Shown here: positions 16,549 to 46,967 of the stretch, piece by piece
How the letters are laid out: each line of letters opens with the position of its first letter
Position numbering within the stretch: position 1 is the stretch's first letter
NCBI GenBank assembly: GCA_018260615.1
Contig: JAGWDQ010000084.1
Coordinates: 1 to 47,436 of the forward strand
DNA from: Candidatus Altarchaeum sp.
GTDB lineage: Archaea; Altiarchaeota; Altiarchaeia; Altiarchaeales; Altiarchaeaceae
DNA length: 47,436 nucleotides
Reading direction: 5' to 3'
Notes under the pieces: model-generated
What the model was told of the DNA's origin: nothing
Databases searched by the model: none
The model's input: the letters and a program-made list of their open reading frames with translations, nothing else
Translations under genes and position numbers: made by a program

Positions 16549-16644
16549 ATAGACCTTTTCTTCATAAAAGAAAGGCACTGTGGAAAAGAAAAAATTGAAT
16601 CATTTAAAATTTAATTTCGCAGAGTAAATTTAATAATAAATTTT

Positions 16645-16785
16645 GTAACTGTTCAGAGGGTGCAAAAATTTACCTGTGAAAATTTCAAAAAATACAATTT
16701 TCAGACTTGTCTGAAAATACACGAACGAAGTGAGCGTAAAAAACAAAAAATTTACCTGTGATTTTTTGGGTGGCTGAATAGTTAC
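16645..16785. mobile_element. MITE with ~12-bp TIR and 8-bp target duplication
   Basis: GTAACTGTTCAG...CTGAATAGTTAC flanked by TAAATTTT on both sides; inverted relative at 46814-46960. Confidence 0.8.
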
Positions 16786-16932
16786 TAAATTTTAATATAA
16801 ATTTAATAATACAAACACATAAAATTTAATAAATTTAAAATAAGTTCGTTTCACTCTCATATTTAAAATTTAAAATAATTTAAAATAATTTCACTTCGTT
16901 CAAATATTTCAAAAATTTATAAAATTTTTAAA

Positions 16933-19307: not shown

Positions 19308-22300
19308 TTGTGCTTAAAAATGTCAAATGTAAACAAGGATAAATTATTTCCTTTAATGGTAACGATAGTCATTGTCGGATTGTTATTATATTTTACCCCG
19401 GGTTTTGCGATTACAATAACCATAAATATGCCAAACGGAGAAATTTATAGATCCGGCGATGTAAATGCGATAGAATTTAACATTAATATAACAATTCCGG
19501 GCAATGAACTTATTCCAATAAATGAAGTCAGGTTTACGATAGTTGATGTTCACGGAAACAATCGTACGTGCAATTTGCCTTTAAATAACGGAAGTTATGA
19601 AATAAATTGTAATGATTATAATATTTCTGTTTTTGTATATGATAATTGCAATTATGAGTACGGACATCTCAATGTAAAAGAACCTTTTAATTACACATGG
19701 GGATTTGGTTATGGTTATGGAGCATCTAATTTGGGATGTAATAGAAGTTACAACATAACATGGAAATTAATAAATCCATATCCCGGTAATTATACGGTAG
19801 AAATTAAAATCATTTCAGACGGGAAGGAATTTATTCAGAAAAAAAAATTTACGATACTTCATCCATGTCAGGATGCCGACGGAGATGGTTATGGTGTTTG
19901 CCCGAATTGCAATACGACACACAACTGCACTTATGACGGAGACGATTGTAACGATTCAAATTCGGGCATCCATCCGGGAGCAACGGAAGTATGTAACAAC
20001 ATTGATGACAACTGCAACAATCAGATAGATGAAGGCAATGTTTGCTTTACAACCTATTATTGTGATAATGATTCAGATACTTACTTTGATAAACAAGCAG
20101 ACGGAACATGCAATTCTTACAAATGTGTCCCGGCAGGATGCCGGATAACACAGGGAAATGACTGCAACGACACAAATACATCAATAAAGCCAGGAGCAAT
20201 AGAAATCTGCGAAAACGGAATAGATGAGGATTGTAATGGATTTGATCTTAAATGCGGAGAGTGTCAGGATGCCGACGGAGATGGTTACGGTGTTTGTCCG
20301 AATTGCAATAATACTCTGAATAATTGCATTTATAATGGCAATGACTGTGACGACACAAATAACTTAATTCATCCGGGAGCGGCAGAAACCTGTAATGGCG
20401 TTGATGATAATTGTGATGGAATTACGGATATTAGTAATGGGATTAATACTTGTCCACTAATAACTTATTATTGTGATGGTGATGGTGACGGATACATAAG
20501 TAATATCTCTTCCGGAACATGCAGCATATACAATTGCGTTCCAGTAAATTGTTCCGCAATCCGGGGAAATGATTGTAATGACAATAATAATTCAATTCAT
20601 CCCGGTGCAACAGAATTGTATAACGGAGTGGATGATAATTGTAACGGATTAACTGACTATGGCAAAGGCGAAATTACAAACTTTGTCATAACACCCGCAG
20701 GCAGGATTATAAAGAATACGGACATTGAATTCAAAATAAATTTCAATAACACGGGGGAAATGAACCTGAATGTTACGCCTTGCATAAATATAACAAAACC
20801 GGATGGAACTATAATTTCATTTATCGGAAATACGACGAGTTTGGACGAATTTTCAAGTAGCGTTTTAAATATCACATGGAAAGCAAATTTAACTCCGGCT
20901 TACTACACCATAAAGCCATACATAATATACGAGTACGGAGGAATCATAAAAACCGCAACTTACAACTCAACAGAAATAAGAATTTTAAAACAAGCAGGAA
21001 TTGCAGTGCGTCCGAAAATAGTAAATGTCGAATTAAATCCGAATAAAAAAGCGGAAATCACGTTGTTTATAGAAAATACGGGAGAAGTTAAACTGGAAAA
21101 TGTTGCCCTTCATTCTGTAACGAATAACATCTCTATTTTTAATTTCACGAAAAATAATTTTAATTTATCAAATTCAAATATTACTGCGGTTACAATGTAT
21201 GTGACTTCTAACAAAACAGGTTATCATACAGAACAGTTACAAATAACCGCGAATAATGCGAATCCGGTTAATGTAACCTTCAATGTAAATGTAACTTCTG
21301 ATGCGCATGCTGTTGTAGATAAACAGGAAACAGTGTACATAATTAACGAAACGCAGAAGGAGATACCTATAAAAGATACACTTAATCTGCAGAATACGGG
21401 AAACAAAACGATAATAAACATAACTATAAATAAGACCGGAACTGCAAAAGAATTTATAAATATTGACAATTTTACGATTCCTGAAAATCTCACCGAAGAT
21501 AACAATCTCGCAATAAATTATACACTTTCCGTTCCAAATAATACCTCTCCAGGAACTTATACGACGGATGTTGAAATATGTTTTGTCGGATCTCCGGTCA
21601 GATGTATTTACTGTAGTATTGATGTGATTGTACTCGGTTCAAGCATAGATGTTGATATCAGCGAACGGATGTCTCCATTAGATATAAAAGCCGGCGATAC
21701 TGTCAAAGATATACCTGTTACTTTAACAAACAAAGGCAATGAAACGATTATCATACACTTGATTGCCAGAGATCTTATATCAGGGGAAGGAAAAAAGATA
21801 TCCGCGGAAAATATAAAATTTTCAGACAATGATGTACTGCTCGATGCCTCGGGGTATAATAAAAGAGTAATTTATACGGATATTTCCGTACCTCCGGGCA
21901 CGCCTCCCGGCATATATTCCGGCGAAATTGAAGTGAGAGAATATGGAGACAACTACGAAATCAGATTTGAGAAATCAATAAATATGGTGATAAATGTTCC
22001 CGTTCAGGAAATAATTACGGATTCGTACAAGGGAGGCGGGGGAGGAGCGGGTGTCAGAGGTACCGGGACAATTCCTTTACCTGGACAATTAACAAAAAGT
22101 GAAGCCGGCATTATTTTAACAAATTCAAAACATGAAGGTCCGTTGAGCATAACAATAATCCTTTTTACCGATGTAAATGGAAGTGTTATAATTACCGCTC
22201 CGTATTTCAAAGAACCGGCTGATGTTGTTCCGTTAACAGATGACTTTGTAGTTTATTTTGGAATTGATCTTGTCAATATAAGCAACGAAGACATAAAAAA

Positions 22301-23666
22301 TAGAATTATTGAGTTAATAATAAATAAAAGCTGGATGGATGAAAATTATGTAAATAAGAGAACGGTTAAATTATGGCATTATCTTGACGGATGGAAAGAA
22401 GTTCGCGTAAATGCAACAGAAAATGAATGTTTTATAAAGTTAACTGCACAAGTTGTTTCTTTCTCCTACTTTGCTCTTACGGCAAAATATGAACCGCAGC
22501 TGCAGATTGATGTATCTTCAATGATAGAAAATGAAATATTTTTCGTAAAAATTACATACGATTTAAAACCCGTTGCCAACGCGAGCGTAAAGTATAATGA
22601 CGAATATAAAAATACAGACACGAACGGAACGGTAAATTTTACTGCAAAGAGAGGAAAGTGCGAAATAATCGCGAGCAAAAAAGGATATATGCCATCTTCT
22701 TTATCAGTTTGTCCGAAACTAATTTTGAATATCAATTCGCCGGATAAAGTGACTGTCGGTGAAAAATTTGATGTAGTAGTTACGGATATTGAAGGAAATT
22801 TAATAAAAAATGTGAAAGTCATCGTAAAATATAATTCCGGAAAAACAGATATTGCAACGACTGACGAGAAAGGTTTGTGTACTTTTACTGCATCTGAAAA
22901 CGGAACGATAGTCATAACTGCACAGGGTGAAGAATATAAAAGTATGGAAAGTATAAGCACGATTGAAGCAAAAATTGAAGAAAGCAAAGACGATATGAAT
23001 TTACTTTATGTGTTGACTGGAATAATTCTTGCCGGAATTGTGATAGGATTTATAATTTTGAGATTCAAAAAAGTACAAAAATTTAAAACGGAAGAAACAG
23101 AAAAGTCGGAAGCAGAAGAAACAGAAAAATCGGAAGCAGAAGAAACAGAAAAGTCGGAAGCAGAAGAAACAGAAAAGTCGGAAGCAGAAGAAACAGAAAA
23201 ATCGGAAATATCGGAAACAGAAAAACTTCCGGAAAATGTCAGGTGTGTTCTGAATGAAAAGGAAATGAACGTAATAAATATATTATCAAAAGAGGATCAT
23301 CTAACTCAGACAGAAATTTGTTCCAAAATTGGCATTCCGCGGGCAACTGCAAGTTATTGTCTGAACAGATTGGAATTGCGGGGCATGATTAAAAGATTTG
23401 AAAAAAGAACGAGCAAAGTTGTGACCTTGGAAGAATGGGTTAAAAATGTGTTGTACGAAAGTAAAGGAAACGAATACTGGTTGAGAATTGTTCTTGCGCT
23501 ACGGGAAGAAAATAATTTAAATCAAAAAACATTATCAGAAAGGACAAATATTCCGGAAGCTACATTGTCAAACATTTTGCGAATAGTAGAAGAAAACGGA
23601 ATAATCAGAAAAGTAAAGCACGGAATGAGCGTAATCATTCAACTGGCAAAGTATCAAAAAAACTAA
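19308..23666 (+). CDS. Giant surface protein: Cys/Asp-rich MopE-like repeats, Ig-like domains, PGF-pre-PGF domain, TM, acidic linker, two C-terminal wHTH domains
   Basis: DADGDGYG...DCND...HPGATE.CN..DDNC repeats; KSW...LWHY..GWKEV...SFSYFAL; TM LYVLTGIILAGIVIGFIIL; LTQTEICSKIGIPRATASYCLNRLE.RGMI and LNQKTLSERTNIPEATLSNILRIVEENGII. Confidence 0.8.
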   Translation: MCLKMSNVNKDKLFPLMVTIVIVGLLLYFTPGFAITITINMPNGEIYRSGDVNAIEFNINITIPGNELIPINEVRFTIVDVHGNNRTCNLPLNNGSYEINCNDYNISVFVYDNCNYEYGHLNVKEPFNYTWGFGYGYGASNLGCNRSYNITWKLINPYPGNYTVEIKIISDGKEFIQKKKFTILHPCQDADGDGYGVCPNCNTTHNCTYDGDDCNDSNSGIHPGATEVCNNIDDNCNNQIDEGNVCFTTYYCDNDSDTYFDKQADGTCNSYKCVPAGCRITQGNDCNDTNTSIKPGAIEICENGIDEDCNGFDLKCGECQDADGDGYGVCPNCNNTLNNCIYNGNDCDDTNNLIHPGAAETCNGVDDNCDGITDISNGINTCPLITYYCDGDGDGYISNISSGTCSIYNCVPVNCSAIRGNDCNDNNNSIHPGATELYNGVDDNCNGLTDYGKGEITNFVITPAGRIIKNTDIEFKINFNNTGEMNLNVTPCINITKPDGTIISFIGNTTSLDEFSSSVLNITWKANLTPAYYTIKPYIIYEYGGIIKTATYNSTEIRILKQAGIAVRPKIVNVELNPNKKAEITLFIENTGEVKLENVALHSVTNNISIFNFTKNNFNLSNSNITAVTMYVTSNKTGYHTEQLQITANNANPVNVTFNVNVTSDAHAVVDKQETVYIINETQKEIPIKDTLNLQNTGNKTIINITINKTGTAKEFINIDNFTIPENLTEDNNLAINYTLSVPNNTSPGTYTTDVEICFVGSPVRCIYCSIDVIVLGSSIDVDISERMSPLDIKAGDTVKDIPVTLTNKGNETIIIHLIARDLISGEGKKISAENIKFSDNDVLLDASGYNKRVIYTDISVPPGTPPGIYSGEIEVREYGDNYEIRFEKSINMVINVPVQEIITDSYKGGGGGAGVRGTGTIPLPGQLTKSEAGIILTNSKHEGPLSITIILFTDVNGSVIITAPYFKEPADVVPLTDDFVVYFGIDLVNISNEDIKNRIIELIINKSWMDENYVNKRTVKLWHYLDGWKEVRVNATENECFIKLTAQVVSFSYFALTAKYEPQLQIDVSSMIENEIFFVKITYDLKPVANASVKYNDEYKNTDTNGTVNFTAKRGKCEIIASKKGYMPSSLSVCPKLILNINSPDKVTVGEKFDVVVTDIEGNLIKNVKVIVKYNSGKTDIATTDEKGLCTFTASENGTIVITAQGEEYKSMESISTIEAKIEESKDDMNLLYVLTGIILAGIVIGFIILRFKKVQKFKTEETEKSEAEETEKSEAEETEKSEAEETEKSEAEETEKSEISETEKLPENVRCVLNEKEMNVINILSKEDHLTQTEICSKIGIPRATASYCLNRLELRGMIKRFEKRTSKVVTLEEWVKNVLYESKGNEYWLRIVLALREENNLNQKTLSERTNIPEATLSNILRIVEENGIIRKVKHGMSVIIQLAKYQKN
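23091..23225 (+). repeat. In-frame 24-bp tandem repeat (EETEKSEA)x5
   Basis: GAAGAAACAGAAAARTCGGAAGCA units from 23091. Confidence 0.9.
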
Positions 23667-25521: not shown

Positions 25522-25872
25522 ATGCCATCAAATCAATACCAAAAAGTATTTATAGGATATGGATTTAATGTCAGCAGCGTGCAGAATATGATAAAACAAT
25601 ATAATAGCAGAATTGTAGTTTTAGAGGCTGAAAAATCGTTATACAATACCAGAACAAGTTCCATAGCATATTACCTCGTAGATAACAATGGATATACTTG
25701 TATTTGGATGAAAAAAGTCAAAAGAAAAAGATATCCTGAAAAAGTGTTGAAAATAGTACTCGTTCCGGAAAGTGAATCTACAGAGAAACCGGAAGAAAAT
25801 TCAGTTTCATTCCGTTCAAAGTTTTGGAGTGGCGTTCCTGATACATTCAAACATGAGGAACTTAAAAAATAA
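25522..25872 (+). CDS. Hypothetical protein
   Basis: 116-aa ORF, no family recognised, ends 4 nt before leader copy A. Confidence 0.35.
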   Translation: MPSNQYQKVFIGYGFNVSSVQNMIKQYNSRIVVLEAEKSLYNTRTSSIAYYLVDNNGYTCIWMKKVKRKRYPEKVLKIVLVPESESTEKPEENSVSFRSKFWSGVPDTFKHEELKK

Positions 25873-25876
25873 ATAA

Positions 25877-26016
25877 AGCCGAGCTTTTCTGTGCGGCGGC
25901 ATTTCGGTTCGGTGCCGGTTAAAAACACAGAAAATGCATACAGGCAAGAACCGGGCGCCGAGGAGGGGCGCTTTACAAGGTCAAACTACAATGGGAACCT
26001 TGCGTAAGTAAATACT
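25877..26016 (+). ncRNA. 140-nt structured leader, copy A
   Basis: Near-identical to B, C, D; stems TTTTCTGTG/CACAGAAAA, CGGCAT/GTGCCG, GCGCC/GGCGC, CAAGG/CCTTG; 29 nt before ATG 26046. Confidence 0.7.
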
Positions 26017-26045
26017 AAAAAAATAAATAGAGGGAGAAAGGTAAA

Positions 26046-27023
26046 ATGAAAAAAATTTTAATTATGTGTATAATTGCGGTTGTGGCTTTTGCATTGGTGA
26101 GCTTGAGTGTGAGTGCAGATAATTTGTCACTTAAAGTGATGAATATGGAAGGAAATCAAAATTGTATTGACTTAACACAAGATGCAAATTTTGAAGTAGA
26201 TGTCATCGTGAATCATGATAAGCCCGTTTTGGGAGCGGCATTTAATTTGAATTATGATACAAACGTTCTTGAAACGGTTCTAATGACCGAAGGAAGCGTA
26301 ATGCATGAATGTAGTTCAACATCTTATTCGATGGTGCCTCCAAATGATACGGGGTGCGGAAATATAACTTTTCAGGATGTGTGTTTTGGTGGAAGCACAA
26401 CAAAAAATGGAACGATATTCAAAGTAACATTCCATGTGAAACAAGATATTAACTGCACAAATATAAGTGTGACTAATGGAGAGTTGTTTAACACTTCCGG
26501 ATATCCAATAGGTGTGTCTAACACAAACTTAAAGATTTGCAAAAATCAACCACCTATTGCAAAAGCGGTATTCCCAACATGCGGATATACAGATGAAATA
26601 TTGATGTTTAATGGAAATGGTTCTTATGATCCGGATGGCTCCATAAAAAGTTATCTTTGGGCATTTGATGATGGATACTTTACGAACATTACTGACACTT
26701 GGAAAGCACATCACGCTTATTCCATACCGGGAATGTATTTCGCTTCATTGGCAGTGAGAGACAACTGCGAAGCATTGAGCGTTACATTTAATGCCCCGAA
26801 TGCAACATGCATATTGCTCTCAGGAGATGTTGACCATAACGGACTTGTTAATGTGTATGATCTTGCCCTGCTGGCAGCATCGTTTGATAAGTGCTGTCCA
26901 AATATAAATGCAAATGTAGATTTCAACGGGGATAAATGTGTTAATATTTTGGATGCCGCTAAATTAGCCGCGAACTGGGGAAAAACATACACTGTCACTT
27001 GTAACTGCAGTAAGATGTGTTAA
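26046..27023 (+). CDS. Secreted cohesin-PKD-dockerin protein (adaptor scaffoldin-like)
   Basis: Cohesin-like FEVDV...FNLNYDTNVL...G.ITF...NGTIFKVTF; PKD NQPPIA...GSYDPDG..YLWAFDDG; dockerin GDVDHNGLVNVYD...DFNGDKCVNILD. Confidence 0.75.
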   Translation: MKKILIMCIIAVVAFALVSLSVSADNLSLKVMNMEGNQNCIDLTQDANFEVDVIVNHDKPVLGAAFNLNYDTNVLETVLMTEGSVMHECSSTSYSMVPPNDTGCGNITFQDVCFGGSTTKNGTIFKVTFHVKQDINCTNISVTNGELFNTSGYPIGVSNTNLKICKNQPPIAKAVFPTCGYTDEILMFNGNGSYDPDGSIKSYLWAFDDGYFTNITDTWKAHHAYSIPGMYFASLAVRDNCEALSVTFNAPNATCILLSGDVDHNGLVNVYDLALLAASFDKCCPNINANVDFNGDKCVNILDAAKLAANWGKTYTVTCNCSKMC

Positions 27024-27098
27024 TAGAAACTATGCTGAAGAGATTGTAATTGTTTTTTATTTTTTTAATTTTTTTAAATAAAATTTACATTAAAAAAT

Positions 27099-28358
27099 TT
27101 GTTAAAATTTAATAACCGAAAGATGGAACAAAAATATATAATGTTGGGAATATTTGGCGTTATTTTGATGTTGTCAGTAGGAATAGTTGTATCTGAAAAC
27201 GCAAAGGAGTATAAAATTGAAACTGTCAGTGAAATTTTAAGTGAACATGTCGGAGGAGAAGCAGTCATCAGAATTAATATGTCCGGAGAAAATCTTCTCG
27301 GAACCGGGTTTGATGTTCTGTTTGACAATGAAATTCTGGAGGCAATATCTGTTGAAGAGGGAAGCATAATGAAAAAATGTAAAAAAACGACATTTGAAGC
27401 ACTTCCTCCTGAAATAAACAATACAAAAGGAATTGTGACATTTCAGGATCTCTGTCTGGGCGAGGCAGTCAGCGAAAATGGAAATGTTGCCGTTATAAAA
27501 TTCACATCAAAGAAAATCGGAAAAAGCTATATAAAGCTTAACAATACATACTTGTTTGACAAAAATGGAGATCCGATAAATATCTCTCCGGTACTTGCAG
27601 GAAATGTATTTGTAAGTGTTGGTCATCCGATGTATAATGCTTCGCTAAAAATTGAAAAGGTCTCCGGGGAAAAGTACGGAGACGTATTCGTATTTAAGGT
27701 CTTATCTGTTGAGGGAAAACCTGTTGAAGGTGCAAAAGTAAAAATTTTAAATAATGTCTTATATACGGATACAAATGGAACGGCAGAAATAATTCTGAAA
27801 CATACAGGAAATTTTGAAGTTGCTGCGGAAAAGGAAAATTACACTTCCTGTTCGGATATGTTTAATTTACAGCCATTGGGAAATTTAAAAATAATTGTGC
27901 CCGAGGATATAAATTTAGGTGACGAAATATCTATAAAGATAGCATATAGCAATGAAACTCCGGCAGGCGGCGTAAAAGTTAGCATAAAGGATGAAAGTTT
28001 TGTTACGGATGAAACCGGAGAAATAAAGTATAATATCGGGAAAGGAGTCGTTAAAATCAGTGCGGAGAAAGAAGGTTACAAGGGAGATGAGAAAGAAATA
28101 TTTGCAAAAGGGGGAATAGTTTGCGGAGACAAAAAGTGCGAAGGGAATGAGAATTGTAAAACATGCGAAGAGGACTGCGGAAAATGTATTGTCTGCGGAG
28201 ACAAAAAGTGCGAAGGGAATGAAACCGCTCAAAACTGTCCTGGAGATTGTGATTCGTCTTCATCAATGTGGACAATCATAGCTGTAATTGCTGCGATTGT
28301 AGTAATTATTCTGATAGTAGCAATAATAATGTCAAAAAAGAAAAAACAAAATAGATAA
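27099..28358 (+). CDS. Membrane-anchored cohesin protein (anchoring scaffoldin-like)
   Basis: Cohesin GFDVLFDNEIL...EGS...G.VTFQD...NGNVAVIKF; Ig-like PVEGAKV repeats; CGDKKCEGNE x2; C-terminal TM plus KKKKQNR tail. Confidence 0.75.
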   Translation: MLKFNNRKMEQKYIMLGIFGVILMLSVGIVVSENAKEYKIETVSEILSEHVGGEAVIRINMSGENLLGTGFDVLFDNEILEAISVEEGSIMKKCKKTTFEALPPEINNTKGIVTFQDLCLGEAVSENGNVAVIKFTSKKIGKSYIKLNNTYLFDKNGDPINISPVLAGNVFVSVGHPMYNASLKIEKVSGEKYGDVFVFKVLSVEGKPVEGAKVKILNNVLYTDTNGTAEIILKHTGNFEVAAEKENYTSCSDMFNLQPLGNLKIIVPEDINLGDEISIKIAYSNETPAGGVKVSIKDESFVTDETGEIKYNIGKGVVKISAEKEGYKGDEKEIFAKGGIVCGDKKCEGNENCKTCEEDCGKCIVCGDKKCEGNETAQNCPGDCDSSSSMWTIIAVIAAIVVIILIVAIIMSKKKKQNR

Positions 28359-28434
28359 TAAATAAATTTAGAAATTTGAAATTTGAATCTGCCACGAAGA
28401 CGGTTTAATCGTAGGGGTTTTGAAATTGAAATTT

Positions 28435-28574
28435 AGCCGAGCTTTTTTGTGCGGCGGCATTTCGGTTTGATGCCGAGTAAAAGCACAGAAAATGCATAAA
28501 GGCAAGAACCGGGCGCCGAGGAGGGGCGCTTTACAAGGTCAAACTACAATGGGAACCTTGCGTAAGTAAATACT
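28435..28574 (+). ncRNA. 140-nt structured leader, copy B
   Basis: Repeat of copy A, 43 nt before ATG 28618; 69/140 G+C. Confidence 0.7.
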
Positions 28575-28617
28575 CAAAAAATAAAGGAAATTTAAGAACA
28601 TATAAACAAAATATAAA

Positions 28618-30705
28618 ATGAAAGGTAAAATTTTAAGTAAACTGAAAAACAAAACTAAATGTGCCACCAGTGTCCATGAGAGAGCGGTTAATGGTTTTGG
28701 GCAAATATTAAATGAAAATTTAGGACGAAGTTTAATAGGTACCGTGATATTTTTGGGATTAGTTTTGGGTTTGAGTTGTGGCGTAAATGCCCACTATGAT
28801 TCCGATTGGCAAACTTTTAATAGTCAAGGTGGAGCTTGCTGTTGTTACGGTGATAATTGCCATGCTTGTCACACACAAGGAGGTTATTGTGGTTGTAAAG
28901 CATCTGGTTTTGGTTTGGTTTGGCTTCAAAAGCAGAATAAATGTAGAGATGGTGGAGACTATCACTTTTTGTGTGGTGGTGGCAATAAATTTAAATCCAG
29001 CTGTAATATAATGTGGGGTGCAGGAATGGGACAAACAGTTGATATTCCTTCTACAGGAGATTATTATGTTTCAATAATGGCTGAGTGGGATAATAAGGCA
29101 ACTGCTGAGAATCTCTATGTGGGAGTCAACAGTTGGGGTAGCAATACATACAGAAGACTTGCCCGTGACTTCAGTACTACAACAAAGTGTGTTTTTAAGA
29201 ATAAATTCAATATTAATTCAGACCCTGCAAAAATCTGGGTTGAATCTTCTGAGAATTCTGGTTCTGTTCATGTAAAAGTATTTAGGGTTTCAGATTGTAT
29301 TCCTGATATACCTGGGTTAGTTTATTGTGAGAGTGGTGATCCAGCAATTCCTAACTGTTGTTTTGACAATGATGGCGACGGCTACAACTCAACAGGCGGC
29401 ACCTGCGGACCAATTGACTGCAACGACAACAACAACCAAATTTACCCAGGAAGCTCACATTCTTGCGGATATTGCAACGGCACAACAGGAACAATATCAT
29501 ATTCTCCAACAACCACAATCTGCAGAGCATCAGCAGGAGATTGCGATAATGCAGAATATTGTTCTGGCTCGGGTTTAGATTGTCCATCAGATACATTTAA
29601 ACCAACAACACAAATTTGCAGAGCATCAGCAGGAGATTGCGACAGCGAAGAAAAATGTACAGGAACAACAGCAGCCTGCCCCTCAGATACATTTAAACCA
29701 ACAACACAAATCTGCAGAGCATCAGCAGGAGATTGCGACAGCGAAGAAAAATGTACAGGAACAACAGCAGCCTGCCCCTCAGATACATTTAAACCAACAA
29801 CACAAATCTGCAGAGCATCAGCAGGAGATTGCGACAGCGAAGAAAAATGTACAGGAACAACAGCAGCCTGCCCCTCAGATACATTTAAACCAACAACACA
29901 AATCTGCAGAGCATCAGCAGGAGATTGCGACAGCGAAGAAAAATGTACAGGAACAACAGCAGCATGTCCATCGGATACATTTAAACCAGCAGGGACATCC
30001 TGCTCAGACGGAACTTATTGCAACGGAGCAGAGACATGCAACGGAGCAGGAAATTGTCAAGCAGGAACAGCAATTAACTGCTCATCAAACAACCAACCAG
30101 CAATCGCAACCTGCACCAACAATCCAGATAATAACCCATTCACATGGGACAATAGACCAGCATTTACCTCAACCTGCAACGAAGCAACACAATCCTGCAC
30201 ATCTTCAACTCAAACACTAACGCACACCTGCAACCAATCCTGCGGAGGATGTTTATCAAACAGCGACTGCAATGACAACGATGCAGGAACAATCGACACT
30301 TGCAACACAACAACCTGCGGATGCGCACACGCAACCAGTTGCACAGACAACGATCACGACGGCTACAACTCAACAGGCGGCAGCTGCGGACCAATTGATT
30401 GCAATGACACCAACGCATCTATACATTCCGGAGCAACCGAAATTTATTGTAATGGTATAGATGAAGATTGTGATGGAGTTGATGCGTGCAACTGTCTTGG
30501 ATGTGTTCTAAAGCCAATTGGCGATGCAAATCAAGATAGATGTGTTAATAGTATAGATCTCACGATACTACAGAAAGCCTATGGACACATATATGGGGAT
30601 GTAAATTACGATGTAAGAGCAGACTTTAACTGTGACTGTAAAGTTGATATAAGGGATTTGGTGATCCTTATGAAAAACTGGCGAAAGCAATCTGTATGCA
30701 GTTGA
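28618..30705 (+). CDS. Secreted Cys-rich protein with disintegrin-like repeats, MopE-like motifs and C-terminal dockerin
   Basis: CRASAGDCD.EE.C.G....CPSD x5; DNDGDGYN...DCND; GDANQDRCVNSID...ADFNCDCKVDIRD. Confidence 0.75.
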   Translation: MKGKILSKLKNKTKCATSVHERAVNGFGQILNENLGRSLIGTVIFLGLVLGLSCGVNAHYDSDWQTFNSQGGACCCYGDNCHACHTQGGYCGCKASGFGLVWLQKQNKCRDGGDYHFLCGGGNKFKSSCNIMWGAGMGQTVDIPSTGDYYVSIMAEWDNKATAENLYVGVNSWGSNTYRRLARDFSTTTKCVFKNKFNINSDPAKIWVESSENSGSVHVKVFRVSDCIPDIPGLVYCESGDPAIPNCCFDNDGDGYNSTGGTCGPIDCNDNNNQIYPGSSHSCGYCNGTTGTISYSPTTTICRASAGDCDNAEYCSGSGLDCPSDTFKPTTQICRASAGDCDSEEKCTGTTAACPSDTFKPTTQICRASAGDCDSEEKCTGTTAACPSDTFKPTTQICRASAGDCDSEEKCTGTTAACPSDTFKPTTQICRASAGDCDSEEKCTGTTAACPSDTFKPAGTSCSDGTYCNGAETCNGAGNCQAGTAINCSSNNQPAIATCTNNPDNNPFTWDNRPAFTSTCNEATQSCTSSTQTLTHTCNQSCGGCLSNSDCNDNDAGTIDTCNTTTCGCAHATSCTDNDHDGYNSTGGSCGPIDCNDTNASIHSGATEIYCNGIDEDCDGVDACNCLGCVLKPIGDANQDRCVNSIDLTILQKAYGHIYGDVNYDVRADFNCDCKVDIRDLVILMKNWRKQSVCS
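29506..29985 (+). repeat. In-frame 96-bp tandem repeat x5 (32-aa disintegrin-like unit)
   Basis: Units start at 29506, 29602, 29698, 29794, 29890; the last four encode identical peptides. Confidence 0.92.
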
Positions 30706-30751
30706 TTTCAATAAATCTCTTTGCGAAATCGAGATACTTGTTGACGAAACC
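30653..30751 (+). repeat. 99-bp repeat: dockerin tail plus 3' hairpin, copy 1
   Basis: Near-identical to 32246-32344; hairpin TCAATAA-ATCTC...GAGAT-AC-TTGTTGA immediately after the TGA. Confidence 0.8.
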
Positions 30752-30882
30752 CTTTTTAAATTTTTTATTTTTTTTAAATTTTTCAGAATCAATCCAATCA
30801 TTTATAAATTCACAATCATTTTCATCAAAAATTAAGGAATAAAATTCCAGAGACAGAGTAACTGTAGGAATTAAAAAAATTT

Positions 30883-31022
30883 AGCCGAGCTTTTTTGTGC
30901 GGCGGCATTTCGGTTCGATGCCGAATAAAAGCACAGAAAATGCATAAAGGCGAGAACCGGGCGCCGAGGAGGGGCGCTTTACAAGGTCAAACTACAATGG
31001 GAACCTTGCGTAAGTAAATACT
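30883..31022 (+). ncRNA. 140-nt structured leader, copy C
   Basis: Repeat of copy A, 31 nt before ATG 31054. Confidence 0.7.
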
Positions 31023-31053
31023 CAAAAAAATAAAAGATAAAAAGAAAGGTAAA

Positions 31054-32298
31054 ATGCAAAAAAGAAATAAAATAGCGTCTTTACTGACAACTTTTATAGT
31101 CGGATTGATGATGTTTTTTGGGATGATTTCAAGTTCAGCAGCAACTTGTGTTTCATGGACACCAAATGTAGAACTTATTGGTAGTTGGTGGACTGGTTCG
31201 TTTAATTCGCCGACAACGGGAGAGCATAAATGTACTGTAACTGTGTGGGACTATGATAATGGTGGTTATTGGCTTCAAAATGAAGAGTATGACGATGTTT
31301 ACATAAATAGCCAATATATTGGAAAAACCACTGACTATAAATGTAATGAATGGTGCACAATTTCAGGGGGAGCGGGCCCTGATTGTCCTTTCACTGGAGA
31401 ATATAGATGGGACCATCCTGATAAACCAATTTGTAAGTACTATGGACCACCTATATCAAGTTCGGTTACCACAAATAGTGTAATTTTAAATCCAACAAAT
31501 AACATAATTGGATTATATGGACATCAGAGCCATAAGGTTTCAGAGGTCAAAGTATGTTGCGAACCAATTAACAAACCACCAAAAGCAAATGCCGGTCCTG
31601 ATCAAGTCGTTAATCACAGCAGCAGTTCATGTAGTGCGTTAGTAACTCTTGATGGATCTGGTTCAACTGATGATGGCTATATATCTCCCTTAACATATAA
31701 TTGGATATGGGTAGGAGGATCAACAACTGGGGTTACTCCTAAGGTAACTTTCATATTGGGAACAAGAACGGTAAATTTGACTGTCTACGATGGGCAATTT
31801 TATAATAAGGACACAGTCGACATCACGGTGCAGGATAAAACGCCACCAAACATAACATGTCCGCCGGATGTTACGGTATGGCAAGAAAGCAGGAACGGAA
31901 CTGTCGTAAACTTGACAGCAAATGCAACAGACATCTGCGATTCAAATGTAAGTATAACAAGCAATAAATTAGCAATATATCCTGTTGGCACAACAACTGT
32001 TACTTTCATTGCAACAGATGATTTTGGAAACAATGCAAGTTGTTCAACAAAGGTTACTGTACTATGCATGTGTATTTCAAGTCCGATTGGAGATACTAAC
32101 GGAGACGGGTGTGTGGATGAGAAAGATCTTACTATACTGTCGAGTGTGTACGGAAGCAGATTTGTATGGAATAATGATACCTGCAACACCGTAAGCGAGA
32201 ATGCGAGATTTTCCGACTTTAATTGTGATGGAAAAGTAGACAAACGGGATTTGGTGATCCTTATGAAAAACTTCCGAAAGCAATCCATATGCAGTTGA
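31054..32298 (+). CDS. Secreted protein: unknown N-domain, PKD-like, HYR, C-terminal dockerin
   Basis: NKPPKANAGPDQ...LDGSGS; DKTPPNITCP...TVTFIATDDFGN; GDTNGDGCVDEKD...DFNCDGKVDKRD. Confidence 0.75.
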   Translation: MQKRNKIASLLTTFIVGLMMFFGMISSSAATCVSWTPNVELIGSWWTGSFNSPTTGEHKCTVTVWDYDNGGYWLQNEEYDDVYINSQYIGKTTDYKCNEWCTISGGAGPDCPFTGEYRWDHPDKPICKYYGPPISSSVTTNSVILNPTNNIIGLYGHQSHKVSEVKVCCEPINKPPKANAGPDQVVNHSSSSCSALVTLDGSGSTDDGYISPLTYNWIWVGGSTTGVTPKVTFILGTRTVNLTVYDGQFYNKDTVDITVQDKTPPNITCPPDVTVWQESRNGTVVNLTANATDICDSNVSITSNKLAIYPVGTTTVTFIATDDFGNNASCSTKVTVLCMCISSPIGDTNGDGCVDEKDLTILSSVYGSRFVWNNDTCNTVSENARFSDFNCDGKVDKRDLVILMKNFRKQSICS

Positions 32299-32344
32299 TT
32301 TCAATAAATCTCTTTGCGAAATTGAGATACTTGTTGACGAAACC
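32246..32344 (+). repeat. 99-bp repeat: dockerin tail plus 3' hairpin, copy 2
   Basis: Near-identical to 30653-30751. Confidence 0.8.
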
Positions 32345-32374
32345 ATTTTTAAATTTTTTTATTTTTAAATTTTA

Positions 32375-32514
32375 AGCCGAGCTTTTCTGTGCGGCGGCAT
32401 TTCGGTTTGATGCCGAGTAAAAGCACAGAAAATGCATAAAGGCGAGAACCGGGCGCCGATGAGGGGCGCTTTACAAGGTCAAACTACAATGGGAACCTTG
32501 CGTGAGTAAATACT
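32375..32514 (+). ncRNA. 140-nt structured leader, copy D
   Basis: Repeat of copy A, 27 nt before ATG 32542. Confidence 0.7.
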
Positions 32515-32541
32515 CAAAAAAAATTGTGAAATTAAAAGAAA

Positions 32542-32922
32542 ATGACGATAAATAAAAACACATTATTTGCGTTAATAGCTACAGGAGTAATGGTGGGGGC
32601 TTTAGTGATGACTGGTGCAAATCCATCAAATGGTTCGTGCGATCCGTGCGGAAAATGTGGAAGTGCAACTTGTGAGTATTGGCCCGGATCCGGTGCTTGT
32701 TTTGGATATGGATATGTGGGTACGGGTTGTATCGGAGATGTGAACAACGATAAAAAGATAAATCATGAGGATCTTGTTTTACTTCAACAAGCTTATGGTT
32801 CTCATAAAGGTGACCCAAAATACAATCAGAATCCAAGGGCAGATCTAAATTGTGATGGCAAAGTGGACATAAGAGATTTGGTCTTGCTGGCAAAAAATTT
32901 CGGAAAAACCTGCTGCCCATAA
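32542..32922 (+). CDS. Small secreted Cys-rich peptide fused to a dockerin
   Basis: Signal peptide, CDPCGKCGSATCEYWPGSGAC, GDVNNDKKINHED...ADLNCDGKVDIRD. Confidence 0.75.
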   Translation: MTINKNTLFALIATGVMVGALVMTGANPSNGSCDPCGKCGSATCEYWPGSGACFGYGYVGTGCIGDVNNDKKINHEDLVLLQQAYGSHKGDPKYNQNPRADLNCDGKVDIRDLVLLAKNFGKTCCP

Positions 32923-34136: not shown

Positions 34137-35090
34137 TTGATGACTATGAAGAAAGCGTATTCTAAAAGGAAAAAGAAACAAAATAAACCAAAGCAAAAGC
34201 ATGTAATCTGCAAATATCTGTTTGACTGGGACGATGTTCCCGGAAAAGATGACAAGAAATTAAAGGACTTTTTGAAAGAGAGATTTTATATCAGCTGGGT
34301 TAAAAATGCGAAAATAGAAAAAAGCAAAAAAAATGGCGAAGAAGTAATTTCCGTAGTTTCTGCCGTTGATTCTCAAAAATTTGTCAACCTGCGATATAAA
34401 AAAGATGAATATAAAGTGACACTTAAGACAGACAAAAACTTATGCGATGAATTGATAGTCAGGAAAGAGGATAATTTATTAAAAATTTACTGCGAGTTGA
34501 TAACCATAGAAAATATACTTGCTTCAATTAAATTAAATTTAGAAGACACCGAATCGGATTATATTGAAACATGCGAATCATCTTCAAAAAAACTGAATTT
34601 GAAAAGAATCATGGAGTGCAAAGATTCCGGCTTCATTTACGATAAATGCAGATTTCCGTGTTTAGTATACAGAATTAAAAATCCCGAACTGGCGATGCTG
34701 GTATTTAATTCCGGAAATATTATTTGCACGGGTGCTAAAAAGGAAGAAGATGTCTATCGGGCAAAAGATATATTGTTCGGGAAGTTTGAGAGCATTGGCA
34801 TTCATTTAAACTGGGAATCATCGAAGGTGCATGTTCAAAATATAGTTGCTTCAGCGATGTTTTATTCCATGATAGATCTGGACATTTTGGCGGACTGCGA
34901 AAATACGGGATACGAGCCGGAGATATTTTCCGGACTTACTTACAAACTCAAAGACCCGAAAACGGCTATGCTTATATTCAGATCGGGAAAGATTGTTATT
35001 ACGGGAGCGGGTAGCACGGAAGCGGCAATTATGGCGGCAGAAAAGACAAAAAAATTAATAATGGATGCAAATGCCATAATAGTTGAATGA
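34137..35090 (+). CDS. tbp: Divergent TATA-box binding protein with ~120-aa N-terminal extra domain
   Basis: Two TBP repeats: ENILAS...FPCLVYRI..P..AMLVFNSGNIICTGAK and QNIVAS...YEPEIFSGLTYK...MLIFRSGKIVITGA. Confidence 0.8.
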   Translation: MMTMKKAYSKRKKKQNKPKQKHVICKYLFDWDDVPGKDDKKLKDFLKERFYISWVKNAKIEKSKKNGEEVISVVSAVDSQKFVNLRYKKDEYKVTLKTDKNLCDELIVRKEDNLLKIYCELITIENILASIKLNLEDTESDYIETCESSSKKLNLKRIMECKDSGFIYDKCRFPCLVYRIKNPELAMLVFNSGNIICTGAKKEEDVYRAKDILFGKFESIGIHLNWESSKVHVQNIVASAMFYSMIDLDILADCENTGYEPEIFSGLTYKLKDPKTAMLIFRSGKIVITGAGSTEAAIMAAEKTKKLIMDANAIIVE

Positions 35091-35189: not shown

Positions 35190-35873
35190 TTGGAGATGAA
35201 TACAAAATATCTGACCGAAGAAAGAAAATACCGGGAAATTTTAAATTTAAATCCGTTTAATGCAGATGCACATTATAATTTTGGAAATGTGTTGTTTGCG
35301 GAAGAAAAATTTGAAGAAGCGGAAAAGGCATACGCAGAAGCAATAAGAATCAATCCGAAATTTGCAGATGCCCACAATGCTATGGGAAAATTATTGCAGA
35401 CCTATGCCGAAAAGCCGAGAGTGAAATATCTCACCGAATGGAATTCGGAAATCATACTTCCCGATCCGAAAAAATTTTCAGAAGCGGAAAAAGAGTACCG
35501 AAAAGCGATAGAAATAGAGCCGTGTTATGTTGAAGGTCATAATAATCTGGCAAATTTGCTTTTTAAATTAGGACGGCTGGAAGAAGCAAAGAAGGAATAT
35601 GAAGAAATTTTAAAAATTTTGCCAAATTTTGCCGAGGCACATTTTAATCTGGGATTTATATTGTTTAATAAGGGAAATTTTGCCGAAGCAGAGAGCGAAT
35701 ACAGAAAAGCGATATCAATAGAGGAAAATTTTGCAGAGGCGTATGAAATGTTAGGTGCTGTTTTACTTAAAACCAAAAAGACGGGAGAGGGATTAAGATG
35801 TTTTGACAGAGCGGTTTTCTTAAAGCCGGAATTAAGGGAAGAAATTGAGGAAATTAAGAGAGGGATGATGTAA
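35190..35873 (+). CDS. TPR-repeat protein
   Basis: Repeated AHYN.G/AHNNLA...EEA.KEY..AI patterns. Confidence 0.85.
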   Translation: MEMNTKYLTEERKYREILNLNPFNADAHYNFGNVLFAEEKFEEAEKAYAEAIRINPKFADAHNAMGKLLQTYAEKPRVKYLTEWNSEIILPDPKKFSEAEKEYRKAIEIEPCYVEGHNNLANLLFKLGRLEEAKKEYEEILKILPNFAEAHFNLGFILFNKGNFAEAESEYRKAISIEENFAEAYEMLGAVLLKTKKTGEGLRCFDRAVFLKPELREEIEEIKRGMM

Positions 35874-35933: not shown

Positions 35934-36992
35934 ATGTCAAACAAATATATTGTTCCGATAGGGGTCTTAATTGCAGCAGTCCTGATAAGTGTGGGGGGAT
36001 TTTTAATTTTAAATCCGTATCAGCCGGGTTCACCTGATAATGCACCGGATAATGATTCGTATGTTGAACCTTCGGAAGGTGAAGCACATTCATTTATGCC
36101 GGAATTAAAGGTAACAGAAGATGCATCAAAACAGAATGCCGATGTTCCGCTCAAGGTTGGAAAAAAGTATGAATACAAAACAACAATGCAAAATACTTAT
36201 GAAGATATGGAGTGCAAGACAAAAGAAAGCGAAGAAGAGTATTACAGAAGAATGCAGATGTATTATAGCGGGATGGATGAAAAGGGCAATAATAATTTAA
36301 CACAACCCGAACTTCCGCCGGGATGCGAACGCAAGAATAAGACAACTACAACAAGTAGCACAACAGAATACAATGTTGAAAAGACAGAAAGGGCTGAAGG
36401 AAAGGATTGTTATGTTGTTAGCGTAAAGCCAAAACAGGATATGGAAGAAATAAAAAAGAGCATAAGAGAATATAAGAGTGATGCAAGTGAAGAAGAAATT
36501 GAGAAAATGGCAGAACAACAGAAAGCGATGGCGGAACAGCAAACGACAACATATTATTACGACAAAGAAAACGGGAAGATAATTAAAATTGTGATGAAAA
36601 TGGGAAATACCGAAATGACCTATACGGAGGATTTGGCAAATGTTATGTCAACTATGATGGGGATGTATATGGGATTTCCTGTGCTCAGCCAGTGGATGCT
36701 CGCATTAGATGAAAATTTCAGATGGATTCAGACCATAGAAGAAAAAGGAGGGGAGAAACACAAAGCAGAAATAGAGTATAAATTTGTTGAAACTGAAAAG
36801 GCAAACAACAGGGAATGTTTTAAGGTTGAAATAACACTCAAAGATAAATCGTCTGTAAAATCAGAAGGGTATAGTTCAATGGATATGAAAACGATTGTCT
36901 GGATAGATAAAGAAAAAAGAATTTTGGTTAAATCACAGACAAAAGCAGAAGGTCTAATGACTTCTGAAACAAATTTAATTCCCGAAAGTTAG
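35934..36992 (+). CDS. Membrane-anchored hypothetical protein, paralog 1 of 3
   Basis: MSNKYIV + TM; QWMLALDENF.W; VWIDKEKRILVK. Confidence 0.65.
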   Translation: MSNKYIVPIGVLIAAVLISVGGFLILNPYQPGSPDNAPDNDSYVEPSEGEAHSFMPELKVTEDASKQNADVPLKVGKKYEYKTTMQNTYEDMECKTKESEEEYYRRMQMYYSGMDEKGNNNLTQPELPPGCERKNKTTTTSSTTEYNVEKTERAEGKDCYVVSVKPKQDMEEIKKSIREYKSDASEEEIEKMAEQQKAMAEQQTTTYYYDKENGKIIKIVMKMGNTEMTYTEDLANVMSTMMGMYMGFPVLSQWMLALDENFRWIQTIEEKGGEKHKAEIEYKFVETEKANNRECFKVEITLKDKSSVKSEGYSSMDMKTIVWIDKEKRILVKSQTKAEGLMTSETNLIPES

Positions 36993-37030
36993 GACTAAAC
37001 TTTTGATAAAAATTTAAAAAAATTTATAAA

Positions 37031-38035
37031 ATGTCAAACAAATATATTGTTTCGACAGGGGTTTTAATAGTAACAATATTAATAATTGTTGGTGGTTTTT
37101 TAATCTTTTCTCCTTTATATCAAGGCGAAGATGATAAAAGAAATATTAGCAATAATGACTCTTATTTTGAACCGGTAGTAAGCAACGCACATCTGCCAGC
37201 ACTTGTAGTGACAGAAGCGGAATTAAAGCCGAATGCAAAAGTTCCGTTTGCTGTTGGAAAGAAATATGAATATAAAACCATAGCACAAGCATCATTCGGA
37301 GTGGCTGATTGTAAAGAACCTCAGGAAATTAATGGACATTTAGAAATTGTTGAATCAACTGCTATTTATACGAATATGGATGGAAGTGAAAAATTACCTG
37401 AGGGTTGTGTAATGAAGAATATGACCTCCACACAAAAGGCCAATGTAGAGTTTTATGTTAAAGGAATAGAAAGAGTTGAAAATGAGGATTGTTATGTTGT
37501 TTCTGCTAAAATAGAACAAGAAACTCCTGCAGGACAAGATACATCAGAAAAGGGAAATATGAAATCTTATGACATATCAAGTGGAATGATGGAGCAACAA
37601 AATATGACTTATTATTACAATAAAGAAACAGGAAAGATGATGAAAATTGTAATAAAAAATAGAAATACTGAGACAACCTATACAAAGGACTTGGCAAATG
37701 CTATGCTAACTACGCAAGGTGGGAATATGCCATTCTTAGTGTTCAGTCAATGGATGCTCTCATTAGATGAGAATTTTAACTGGATTCAAACAAAAGAAGA
37801 TAAAGAGTGGGGGCATAAAGCTAAAATAGAATACAAAGTGGTCGGTGTTGAAAAAATAAACAATAAGGACTGCTTTAAGGTTGAGATAATGACCAAAGAT
37901 AAATCCTATTTGAATATAACAACAGAAACAAAAATGACGATTTGGGTAGATAAAGAAAAAAGAATTTTGGTTAAGGCAGACGAAAGAGAAGAAGGTAGTG
38001 TGACCGCAGAAACAAATTTAATTTCCGAAAGTTAG
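37031..38035 (+). CDS. Membrane-anchored hypothetical protein, paralog 2 of 3
   Basis: Same terminal motifs as paralog 1. Confidence 0.65.
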   Translation: MSNKYIVSTGVLIVTILIIVGGFLIFSPLYQGEDDKRNISNNDSYFEPVVSNAHLPALVVTEAELKPNAKVPFAVGKKYEYKTIAQASFGVADCKEPQEINGHLEIVESTAIYTNMDGSEKLPEGCVMKNMTSTQKANVEFYVKGIERVENEDCYVVSAKIEQETPAGQDTSEKGNMKSYDISSGMMEQQNMTYYYNKETGKMMKIVIKNRNTETTYTKDLANAMLTTQGGNMPFLVFSQWMLSLDENFNWIQTKEDKEWGHKAKIEYKVVGVEKINNKDCFKVEIMTKDKSYLNITTETKMTIWVDKEKRILVKADEREEGSVTAETNLISES

Positions 38036-38073
38036 GACTAAACTTTTGATAAAAATTTATAAAAATTTAAAAA

Positions 38074-39099
38074 ATGTCAAACAAATATATTGTTCCGATG
38101 GGAATATTGGTTGCGGCAATTTTGATAAGTGTAGGAGGATTTTTAATTTTTAATCCACACACCACTACAACACCTTCTGAACCGGATAATGAATGTTATA
38201 TTGAAGAAACACAAAATTTTATTCCCGATGTTAAAATTCAGCAGGGAGAACTTAAAAGAAATGCCGATTTGCAATTAAAGATTGGCAACAGATACAGATA
38301 TGAATATAATATAGCATATCCTTTAAACCTGACGTCTGCTCTCGTCGGAGGAAGCAACGGAACATCGGGAAAGACCCAAAATACAGTTATGAAAATGTCC
38401 GGAAGCGTGGATATTGTGGTTGACAGGAAAGAAAGATATAATAAAAGTGATGTTTATGTTTTGAAATACACATCAACAATGAAATTTGAAAATATGGAAG
38501 AATTGATGATGGCGGATAAAAATGGGAAGGCAATGACACAGCAGGAAATGCAGCAGATGAATATGTTCAAAGAAGGAATAAATACAAGCGGAGAAACGTG
38601 GATAAATAATGACGGAAAAACAGTAAAAACAATAACAAAAATGTTCGGAATGGAGATGACAATAGAAGGCGAAAAGGCAGAAGGCGGCGGTACGATGGGT
38701 GGAGTTAGCCCAAGCATGATGATTCAACCGTGGATGCTCGCATTGAATGAAAATTTTGAATGGACTAAAAACACAACTATGGATATGAGCGGCTTTAAAA
38801 GCACAAGCAGCGAAACTATGGATATGAGCGGCTTTAAAAGCACAAGCAGCGAAAGATATAAAGTTGTCGGTGTGGAAGAAATTGATACAAAAAACGGAAA
38901 GAAAAAGTGTTATAAAGTAGAGCAGGAATCTGCAAGCAGTATGGATATGTCAGGAAAATCCGGAGGTACTACTAATACCAAAATTTCAGCAAGAAGTATT
39001 TTATGGATTGATTATAATAACCGAATATTAGTCAAAACAGAAGAATGGATGGAAAATTTAAAAATCGGAAGTGTTGAGTTAGTTGATGAAAAAATTTAA
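38074..39099 (+). CDS. Membrane-anchored hypothetical protein, paralog 3 of 3
   Basis: Same motifs; exact 39-bp internal duplication 38776-38853 (TMDMSGFKSTSSE x2). Confidence 0.65.
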   Translation: MSNKYIVPMGILVAAILISVGGFLIFNPHTTTTPSEPDNECYIEETQNFIPDVKIQQGELKRNADLQLKIGNRYRYEYNIAYPLNLTSALVGGSNGTSGKTQNTVMKMSGSVDIVVDRKERYNKSDVYVLKYTSTMKFENMEELMMADKNGKAMTQQEMQQMNMFKEGINTSGETWINNDGKTVKTITKMFGMEMTIEGEKAEGGGTMGGVSPSMMIQPWMLALNENFEWTKNTTMDMSGFKSTSSETMDMSGFKSTSSERYKVVGVEEIDTKNGKKKCYKVEQESASSMDMSGKSGGTTNTKISARSILWIDYNNRILVKTEEWMENLKIGSVELVDEKI

Positions 39100-45032: not shown

Positions 45033-45083
45033 ATTATATACTTTAACATTTTTAATTATTATTCAAAGAAAATATCTTTTGTC

Positions 45084-46674: not shown

Positions 46675-46813
46675 AAATATAGACGGGCAATCTTTTTTGC
46701 CTGTTATTTTTTAAATTTTTGTTAATTGGTTTTAAATTTTTCCTGAATAACTTGTATGCTGGTTAAATTCCTAAATTTTTAACTCATAAGTGGATTAAAA
46801 TATTGAATTTTTG

Positions 46814-46960: not shown

Positions 46961-46967
46961 AATTTTT

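Follow-up and report, generated by a model that had tools for sequence, protein, structure and literature searches.

To our knowledge, Archaea offer few examples of conserved cis-regulatory RNA structures, and we found no previously described one for Altiarchaeota. In this study, we analysed a stretch of 47,436 nucleotides from Candidatus Altarchaeum sp. (contig JAGWDQ010000084.1, positions 1 to 47,436, assembly GCA_018260615.1), hereafter named the window, in which a 140-nt element is repeated four times between positions 25877 and 32514, within a cluster of cohesin and dockerin genes. Judging from sequence comparisons, we consider it reasonably probable that these four repeats belong to a previously undescribed Altiarchaeota family of structured, cis-acting 5' leader RNAs, read from the + strand, which would be recognised by a protein, protect the 5' end of the transcript, or both. 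The element would probably act on the mRNA as a control or stabilising element.

Several described systems resemble this element in part. Like orphan riboswitch candidates and other structured motifs of 5' untranslated regions (UTRs), it is GC-rich and multi-helical, is predicted to form a pseudoknot, varies by compensatory changes, and occupies a fixed spot 5' of related genes, with several copies per genome. Unlike orphan riboswitch candidates, it occurs only in an uncultured archaeal phylum, lacks a recognisable expression platform, and can dispense with its 5' domain. In bacteria, pili, adhesins and secreted proteins are regulated by the c-di-GMP-I and c-di-GMP-II (GEMM) riboswitches. Here also, one motif precedes many genes for surface or secreted proteins, at times in tandem arrays, but it matches the GEMM riboswitches neither in sequence nor in structure (RF01051 and RF01786 unmatched), its host is an archaeon, and no ligand or signalling pathway is indicated. 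The 5'-UTR stabilisers of envelope-protein mRNAs, such as the ompA 5' stem-loops, the leaders of S-layer (surface-layer) genes and the STAB-SD of cryIIIA, are also hairpins at or near the 5' end of mRNAs for exported proteins; the likeness extends to the loop of our hairpin P3, often similar to a Shine-Dalgarno (SD) sequence (GAGGAGG, GGAGG), and to an unstructured A-rich spacer before the start codon. These stabilisers are simple, lineage-specific hairpins, whereas the present leader is a conserved pseudoknotted family with a putative stabilising role. Ribosomal-protein and other protein-binding autoregulatory leaders share with it modular 5'-UTR hairpins, conserved loops and linkers, and variable peripheral helices, but they serve one autoregulated gene, whereas the leader RNA here precedes diverse genes. 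Finally, in the cip-cel operon of Ruminiclostridium cellulolyticum, the stem-loops of selective RNA processing and stabilisation (SRPS) are gene-specific, placed at 3' ends, and belong to one operon transcript (PMC4423207). In both cases, intergenic RNA structures within a cohesin/dockerin cluster could set subunit ratios (PMC4423207). The altarchaeal leader differs in being one conserved multi-helix element 5' of each gene, in that at least two of its copies follow putative T-run terminators, and in that the family also exists outside dockerin clusters. In the library of papers searched, we found none linking Altiarchaea with riboswitches or with dockerins.

Alignment and repeat finding placed the four copies, A to D, at 25877-26016, 28435-28574, 30883-31022 and 32375-32514, all as direct repeats on the + strand and each 140 nt long. 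Their pairwise identity is 95-98% (BLAST E 5e-59 to 2e-68; 98, 97 and 95% for the three comparisons with copy B, taken as the reference), while their flanks are unalignable: conservation starts sharply at AGCCGAGC and stops just past GTAAATACT. The elements have a GC content of 49-51%, compared with 34% for the whole window and 14-28% for the spacers next to them. From the end of the element to the next ATG, the gap is 29 nt for A (ATG at 26046), 43 nt for B (28618), 31 nt for C (31054) and 27 nt for D (32542); the first base of copy A lies 4 nt past the stop of an open reading frame (ORF, 25522-25872). All four proteins encoded downstream contain Dockerin_1, and the cohesin-only gene at 27099 has no leader copy. 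The length, GC content (about 49%), coordinates and distances of the copies given in the original prediction were all reproduced, and its statement that the dockerin-less cohesin gene and the other genes of the window lack the element agrees with our covariance-model searches of the window, which gave no credible copy beyond A-D. The further claim of a copy before every dockerin gene holds inside the cluster, but not beyond it: dockerin genes on contigs C130 and C88 of the same genome are preceded by AT-rich DNA (10-20% GC) without the element. The dockerin association is local to this cluster.

The host assembly (2.23 Mb in 148 contigs, 33% GC, 87% complete) contains five members in total, copies A-D and a diverged fifth on contig C139. 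A selfish repeat, of the kind of a miniature inverted-repeat transposable element (MITE), had been considered from the start, with copies scattered in random orientation as its mark; we found 5 copies only, all upstream of genes and co-oriented with them. It is true that the repeated unit sits between genes, which would suit a MITE as well as an integron attC-type recombination site. However, 5 copies in 2.2 Mb with a single orientation relative to genes, termini (AGCCGAGC... versus ...GTAAATACT) that are not inverted repeats, no target duplication, and relatives that are single-copy and diverged in other families all speak against a MITE. For attC, the fold has several hairpins and a pseudoknot instead of one long imperfect palindrome, there are no ATAAC...GTTAT ends, and spacing is fixed to the downstream start and not to the upstream stop. 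We give these two explanations a negligible probability. Pattern scans of viral contigs, bearing on a viral or mobile origin, gave no match to the element.

We then searched for relatives with a covariance model of the 3' half (R1, then R2 and R3), run on 61 Altiarchaeota genomes (the phylum here being equivalent to the class). Diverged relatives were detected in 7-8 of the 61 genomes, in 4 of 9 families, as well as on metagenome contigs. The genome of Ca. Altarchaeum CG2_30 (G003), from the host's genus, has one copy, Candidatus Altiarchaeales archaeon WOR_SM1 (G060) has four, two of them in tandem, genomes G046, G030, G035 and G056 have one each, and G012 has a partial copy reduced to P3. 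On metagenome contigs, a pattern scan revealed L025, the ortholog of copy D, and L021, a new variant. A search with the copy-D protein matched 2 proteins and gave no additional diverged loci. Weak covariance-model matches (L034-L037, L039, which is partial, and L052) were discarded as coding regions or unconvincing, one of them adjoining a tRNA gene; pattern matches L020, L022, L023 and L030 are due to chance, and the tail pattern GTAAATAYCCRAAA, searched across the class, returned only known members and chance matches within coding regions.

All 16 full members lie on the same strand as the ATG, which is found 18-39 nt past the model match, and none of the 16 has a T-run of 5 or more between element and ATG. 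Among 14 independent downstream genes, 10 have a signal-peptide-like start, and an eleventh, the gene after copy B, has an N-terminal anchor; the call follows a crude rule of our own, for which the background is 15% of long ORFs in the host genome (binomial p = 4e-6). Domains recognised in the downstream proteins are cohesin, PKD, HYR, MopE/disintegrin-like, DUF11 and DUF7507. For those without signal peptide, Atlas look-alikes are weak (CarboxypepD_reg-like, GEVED-like), with scores below 0.9 or in unnamed clusters. The proposal that the element co-regulates dockerin subunits was not borne out, since other dockerin genes are without element and homologs precede non-dockerin genes. The C139 element (locus L005), near the contig end, is followed only by a 27-codon GTG ORF (VSYAKLN...), whose start resembles that (MSFAKLN...) of the 202-aa gene following the L021 element (L021 5137-5742); this ORF is probably a truncated remnant.

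We infer that the element is part of the 5' leader of the downstream gene because its orientation and its distance to the start codon are invariant, because no terminator separates it from the gene, because a good SD sequence lies between tail and ATG in several members (canonical in G046, G035, G012, G060a and copy A; absent in copies B and D), and because copies C and D follow T5-T8 runs, copy D having in addition a TATA-like TTTTTAAAT box about 24 nt 5' of its first base. In G046 and G030, a lone element lies within an AT-rich promoter region; in G046, a gene on the opposite strand shares this region. The TATA-like box of copy D, the abrupt start of conservation at AGCCGAGC, and the appearance of a GC-rich structured island in an AT-rich genome would also fit an independent gene for a small non-coding RNA, trans-acting or structural, which merely happens to lie upstream of genes. 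Such a gene is decidedly unlikely: orientation and start-codon distance are fixed in 16 of 16 full members, there is no oligo-T terminator between element and gene, and the downstream genes are not random. Archaeal box C/D or H/ACA small RNAs were also considered and rejected: the copies contain no TGATGA or CTGA, and P3 is a simple hairpin of 5 bp that lacks a pocket. Most members have an ACA after P3, which is not diagnostic alone.

The predicted fold is best described on copy B, all positions being on the + strand. According to minimum free energy (MFE) folds, the 5' domain (28441-28495) consists of P1 (28441-28452/28483-28495) enclosing P2 (28455-28460/28470-28475). The loop of P2 (28462-28468) would pair with GAACCGG (28506-28512), directly 5' of P3, to form a pseudoknot. 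P3 (28513-28529) is a GCGCC/GGCGC hairpin with a 7-nt purine-rich loop, GAGGAGG. It is followed by P4 (28534-28560), whose outer helix (28534-28539/28555-28560) leads through an internal loop (CAA / A) to an inner helix P4b (28544-28546/28550-28552), added here to the model first proposed. P5 (28561-28566) is a mini-hairpin in which a C-G pair closes a GUAA tetraloop, and the single-stranded tail UAAAUAC (28567-28573) is conserved; both are likewise additions to that first model. The conserved unpaired nucleotides are found in the P3 loop (GA..GG), in the J3/4 linker (WUAC) and in the UAAAUAY tail.

Diverged homologs keep these helices by compensatory changes. Compared with GCGCC/GGCGC, P3 reads GCACC/GGUGC, CCGCC/GGCGG or UCGCC/GGCGA in homologs (GC to AU, GC to CG and GC to UA), and P4 reads CAGGG/CCCUG instead of CAAGG/CCUUG, with G-U variants in G030 and G060c. 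In a model-fitted alignment of 16 distinct sequences, 95.4% of the P3 and P4 cells are paired, and two-sided changes affect 7 of 11 pairs. These values were reached in none of 500 shuffles, and at most 2 two-sided pairs were left when the partner was shifted by 1-3 columns. Separate MFE folds of the 3' modules recovered P3 and P4 in most homologs, as well as P4b (CUA/UGG, CCUA/UAGG, CUU/AAG, GC/GC or CC/GG). P5 comes directly after P4, with a stem of 1-5 bp and GUAA, GUGA, GAAA, GAAU, UUAA or AAGA as loops. The tail, UAAAUAC or UAAAUAU, is the most conserved primary sequence, and an A-rich spacer comes next. MFE z-scores of single copies are weak (-1.2 to -2.4) and give no distinction between the strands.

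Upstream of P3, folds of five types (window, L021, G060a, G003 and C139) gave the same architecture, a long P1 enclosing P2 with a loop of 7-10 nt, although the sequences are unrelated: P1 is UUUUYUGUG/CACAGAAAA in the window and UUCCUUGAU/AUUGAGGAA in L021. In all five types, the 7-9 nt just before P3 form the complement of the P2 loop, at -43 to -50. The putative pairings are CGGUUY with GAACCG in the window type, CAUCUCU with AGAGAUG in L021, UUGGCUC with GAGCCGA in G060a, UGGCUGUG with CACAGCCA in G003, and, with one mismatch, UGGAUGU with GCAGCCA in C139. Set in register from P3, they show two-sided changes at 5 of 7 positions, and duplex energies range from -6 to -15 kcal/mol. A mononucleotide shuffle gave a combined p = 5e-4, a significance that is only moderate because shuffling preserves the complementary composition; the pseudoknot is better supported by the comparison of the types in register. 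The predicted fold is structured and aptamer-like with covariation, formally counted for P3 and P4, and seen as folds plus compensatory changes for P1, P2, the pseudoknot, P4b and P5. The helices P1 to P4 and the P2-loop pseudoknot of the original prediction, for which covariation in diverged homologs had been called for, were thus all retained.

Some local resemblances did not withstand comparison. In the window type, J3/4 (UUUA) could pair with the tail (UAAA), but the tail is constant when J3/4 is UAUA, AAUA or CAUA, so that this helix shows no covariation. A K-turn in P4, a bulge-helix-bulge or bulge-helix-loop splicing motif in P4/P4b, and GGUAAAUAC as a mimic of the 16S 530 loop were looked for by eye and dismissed, none being consistent across homologs.

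No known family accounts for the element. A cmscan of the window against Rfam 15 (4227 families) matched only a tRNA at the gathering threshold; no match was found on the elements in the region 25800-32600 at E<=10, nor in twelve homolog loci at E<=1-5. The element thus stays outside known riboswitch and ribozyme classes, as had been supposed from its letters. At L041 1511-1547 (contig C257 of G060), a weak, sub-threshold match to the CRISPR direct-repeat family RF01329 (25 bits, E 0.27) was seen about 300 nt from one G060 leader copy.

A complex covarying pseudoknot with conserved unpaired nucleotides, present in several copies per genome before functionally related genes, is what a true riboswitch would look like: its ligand, a small molecule or ion such as a second messenger or an envelope-relevant metal, would bind to the fold and thereby switch genes for exported proteins. 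A possible switch had been pointed out, GCRAG competing with the 5' strand of P4 for CUUGC. This alternative pairing exists in the window type and in the close variant L021, but is absent in others. It is restricted to close relatives, and no conserved expression platform was found in the family, so that the riboswitch-like mechanism first envisaged is not supported. Moreover, other families can do without whole domains, and no ligand is suggested by the downstream genes, which are neither metabolic nor transport genes. We hold a true riboswitch to be unlikely, and ligand sensing to be less likely than a protein-bound or stabilising role.

The strand of action was examined next. Among copies A-D and L025, 6 of 88 paired positions vary, as compared with 9 of 52 unpaired ones. 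Of the six variable stem positions, four give a G-U pair on the + strand, where the - strand would have a mismatch, one disrupts the terminal P1 pair in copy A, and one improves a pair. The reverse strand preference is seen at one of the six. The earlier deduction of a sense-strand RNA from stem differences was in this way reproduced. In a strand-symmetric test, in which the structure was predicted from one sequence and substitutions were scored in its relatives, the + strand of the window type gave 20 compatible and 10 incompatible substitutions, and its - strand 5 and 21, respectively (Fisher p = 5e-4, the counts not being independent). Across eleven sequence types, internal G-U pairs numbered 34 on the + strand and 12 on the - strand (p = 0.002). 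A 25-codon upstream ORF (MHKGKNRAP...) running through the element was rejected as coding, with 4 of 4 substitutions non-synonymous and a frame broken in L025.

This strand asymmetry of the G-U pairs speaks against control at the DNA level, in which P3 and P4 would be palindromic operators for a transcription factor, and the tail TAAATAC or the J3/4 TTTACA a TATA box. P3 is indeed a perfect inverted repeat (GCGCC-N7-GGCGC), the TATA-like tail lies 23-44 nt from the ATG, and the cluster is flanked by a gene for a winged helix-turn-helix protein (19308-23666) and by one for an extended TATA-binding protein (TBP, 34137-35090). Yet the interleaved pseudoknot, the variable length of P4b and P5 and the GNRA-type loops would be meaningless for an operator, and in G046, G035, G012, G060a and copy A the SD sequence would fall 5' of a start site set by the tail. 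Besides, tRNA promoters of the host genome read GAAAAATTTAAA, not GTAAATAC. DNA-level control is scarcely probable, and the tail as TATA box of a leaderless promoter was rejected for most members on the last two grounds.

We therefore return to the structured leader RNA. The sequences firmly establish the repeat, a covarying fold with pseudoknot, its strand bias, its fixed place and orientation before genes, the excess of exported proteins and the lack of an Rfam match; for its transcription as a 5' UTR and for its role, the following mechanism can be proposed. The element would be transcribed with the downstream gene, as part of its 5' leader. Its conserved core would be a 3' module made of P3 with its purine-rich loop, P4/P4b, P5, the UAAAUAY tail and the A-rich spacer, to which the window's family and one other family would have added a 5' domain (P1, P2 and the pseudoknot with the 7-9 nt 5' of P3). 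It would act in cis on mRNAs mostly for exported or surface proteins, setting their stability, their translation or both by way of a structured 5' end that is protected and that a protein probably recognises. Protein recognition or protection is favoured because the members share no helix that would sequester the SD or AUG and have no attenuator, and because P3, P5 and the tail persist while whole domains vary between families.

A number of observations weigh against this reading. No conserved helix sequestering the SD or AUG, and no attenuator or terminator, was found among the members, SD sequestration not being general. Families f4 and f5 have the 3' module alone, right after an AT-rich promoter-like region and without 5' domain; G035 and G056 have other hairpins in place of P4, and the P3 loop of G056 is altered. 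Such modularity is unusual for a ligand aptamer, and leaves a small essential core. The covariation counts come from few independent lineages and from an alignment fitted to the structure. Three of the downstream genes encode proteins that are not exported, one of them being followed by a gene for a papain-type protease. The 5' domain of G060a overlaps the end of an upstream ORF, and among strain variants of copy D, two further variants are new, one of which disrupts a pseudoknot pair. Finally, the family is rare, being present in about 8 of the 61 genomes.

Strain variants of copy D also shed light on the near identity of the four leaders. On contigs L053-L056, element positions 34, 86 and 130 switch to the A-C state, which in sequence terms is the signature of gene conversion among the four leaders. 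The 95-98% identity is thus due in large part to gene conversion, and not to selection alone. Copy D and its metagenome ortholog L025 are 91.8% identical in the element, 81.2% in the coding sequence (77% for third codon positions) and 53% in the 3' flank. According to the proposed mechanism, the leader-bearing unit would have multiplied in the cohesin-dockerin cluster, and gene conversion would keep its copies near-identical.

The genes that follow the four copies are all on the + strand. Copy A precedes 26046-27023 (signal peptide, cohesin, PKD and dockerin), copy B 28618-30705 (N-terminal anchor, Cys-rich 96-nt tandem repeats of disintegrin-like/MopE type, and dockerin), copy C 31054-32298 (signal peptide, HYR domain and dockerin) and copy D 32542-32922, which encodes a small protein of 126 aa with signal peptide and dockerin. 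A 3' module at the end of the gene after copy B (~30622-30783) is repeated with 89% identity after the gene following copy C (~32215-32374). It contains the C-terminal end of dockerin and 68 nt of 3' flank, with a small hairpin and T5-T8 runs that we read as a putative archaeal terminator. As these runs lie before copies C and D, both copies would need promoters of their own, and the duplicated unit of the cluster seems to be 'dockerin end, terminator, promoter, leader'.

These T-runs also bear on a mechanism analogous to SRPS, in which the element would be a processing signal, or a self-cleaving ribozyme, splitting polycistronic transcripts. Copies do lie between co-oriented genes, copy A only 4 nt after the upstream stop, and the cip-cel operon offers a parallel (PMC4423207). 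However, strong T-runs precede copies C and D, the element of G046 and of G030 stands beside its own promoter region and not within an operon, and no known ribozyme family matches. Processing of this kind is very improbable.

Whatever its mode of action, the motif has covariation sufficient for deposit as a new RNA family. It marks genes for exported and surface proteins that may form one regulon, in Altiarchaea, uncultured groundwater archaea that are known for elaborate surface structures, and it offers a handle on post-transcriptional control in an uncultured phylum for which Ca. Altiarchaeum metatranscriptomes are published (PMC12133352). Tandem leader-gene units kept alike by gene conversion would illustrate the growth of a cohesin-dockerin cluster by reuse of a control module. 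Were the element truly riboswitch-like, it would be the first Altiarchaeota-specific class of RNA sensing a ligand or signal, with a new effector, and would allow coordinate switching of the exported and surface proteome, including cohesin-dockerin assembly, in a subsurface archaeon.

Several features lie around the cluster. Directly upstream of it, the gene at 19308-23666 (+) encodes a 1452-aa protein with four MopE-type metal-binding repeats, CarboxypepD_reg/Ig-like domains, a linker encoded by a 24-nt tandem repeat (23044-23235) and two C-terminal winged-helix domains of MarR/TrmB type; this protein may be a membrane-spanning one-component transcription regulator. The TBP paralog gene (34137-35090, +), 1.2 kb downstream of the cluster, encodes 317 aa, of which about 130-220 aa form an N-terminal extension; a gene for a TPR protein (35190-35873) comes next. 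Three tandem paralogs of 334-352 aa, with conserved N-terminal anchors and a weak LolA-like match, occupy 35934-39099 (+). Repeats of other kinds were also noted in the window. At 45081-45218, a unit of about 41 nt occurs three times in tandem at a spacing of 48-49 nt, each time with a AAATTTCT-TATA-GAAATTT palindrome, and an inverted copy of the unit at 2930-2989 adjoins a tRNA-Val gene at 3099. Inverted repeats link 16631-16789 with 46810-46974, 30 kb apart, over 62 nt (76% complementary) and over 78 nt (90% complementary), and a direct repeat with 84% identity joins 4753-4797 to 47271-47315.

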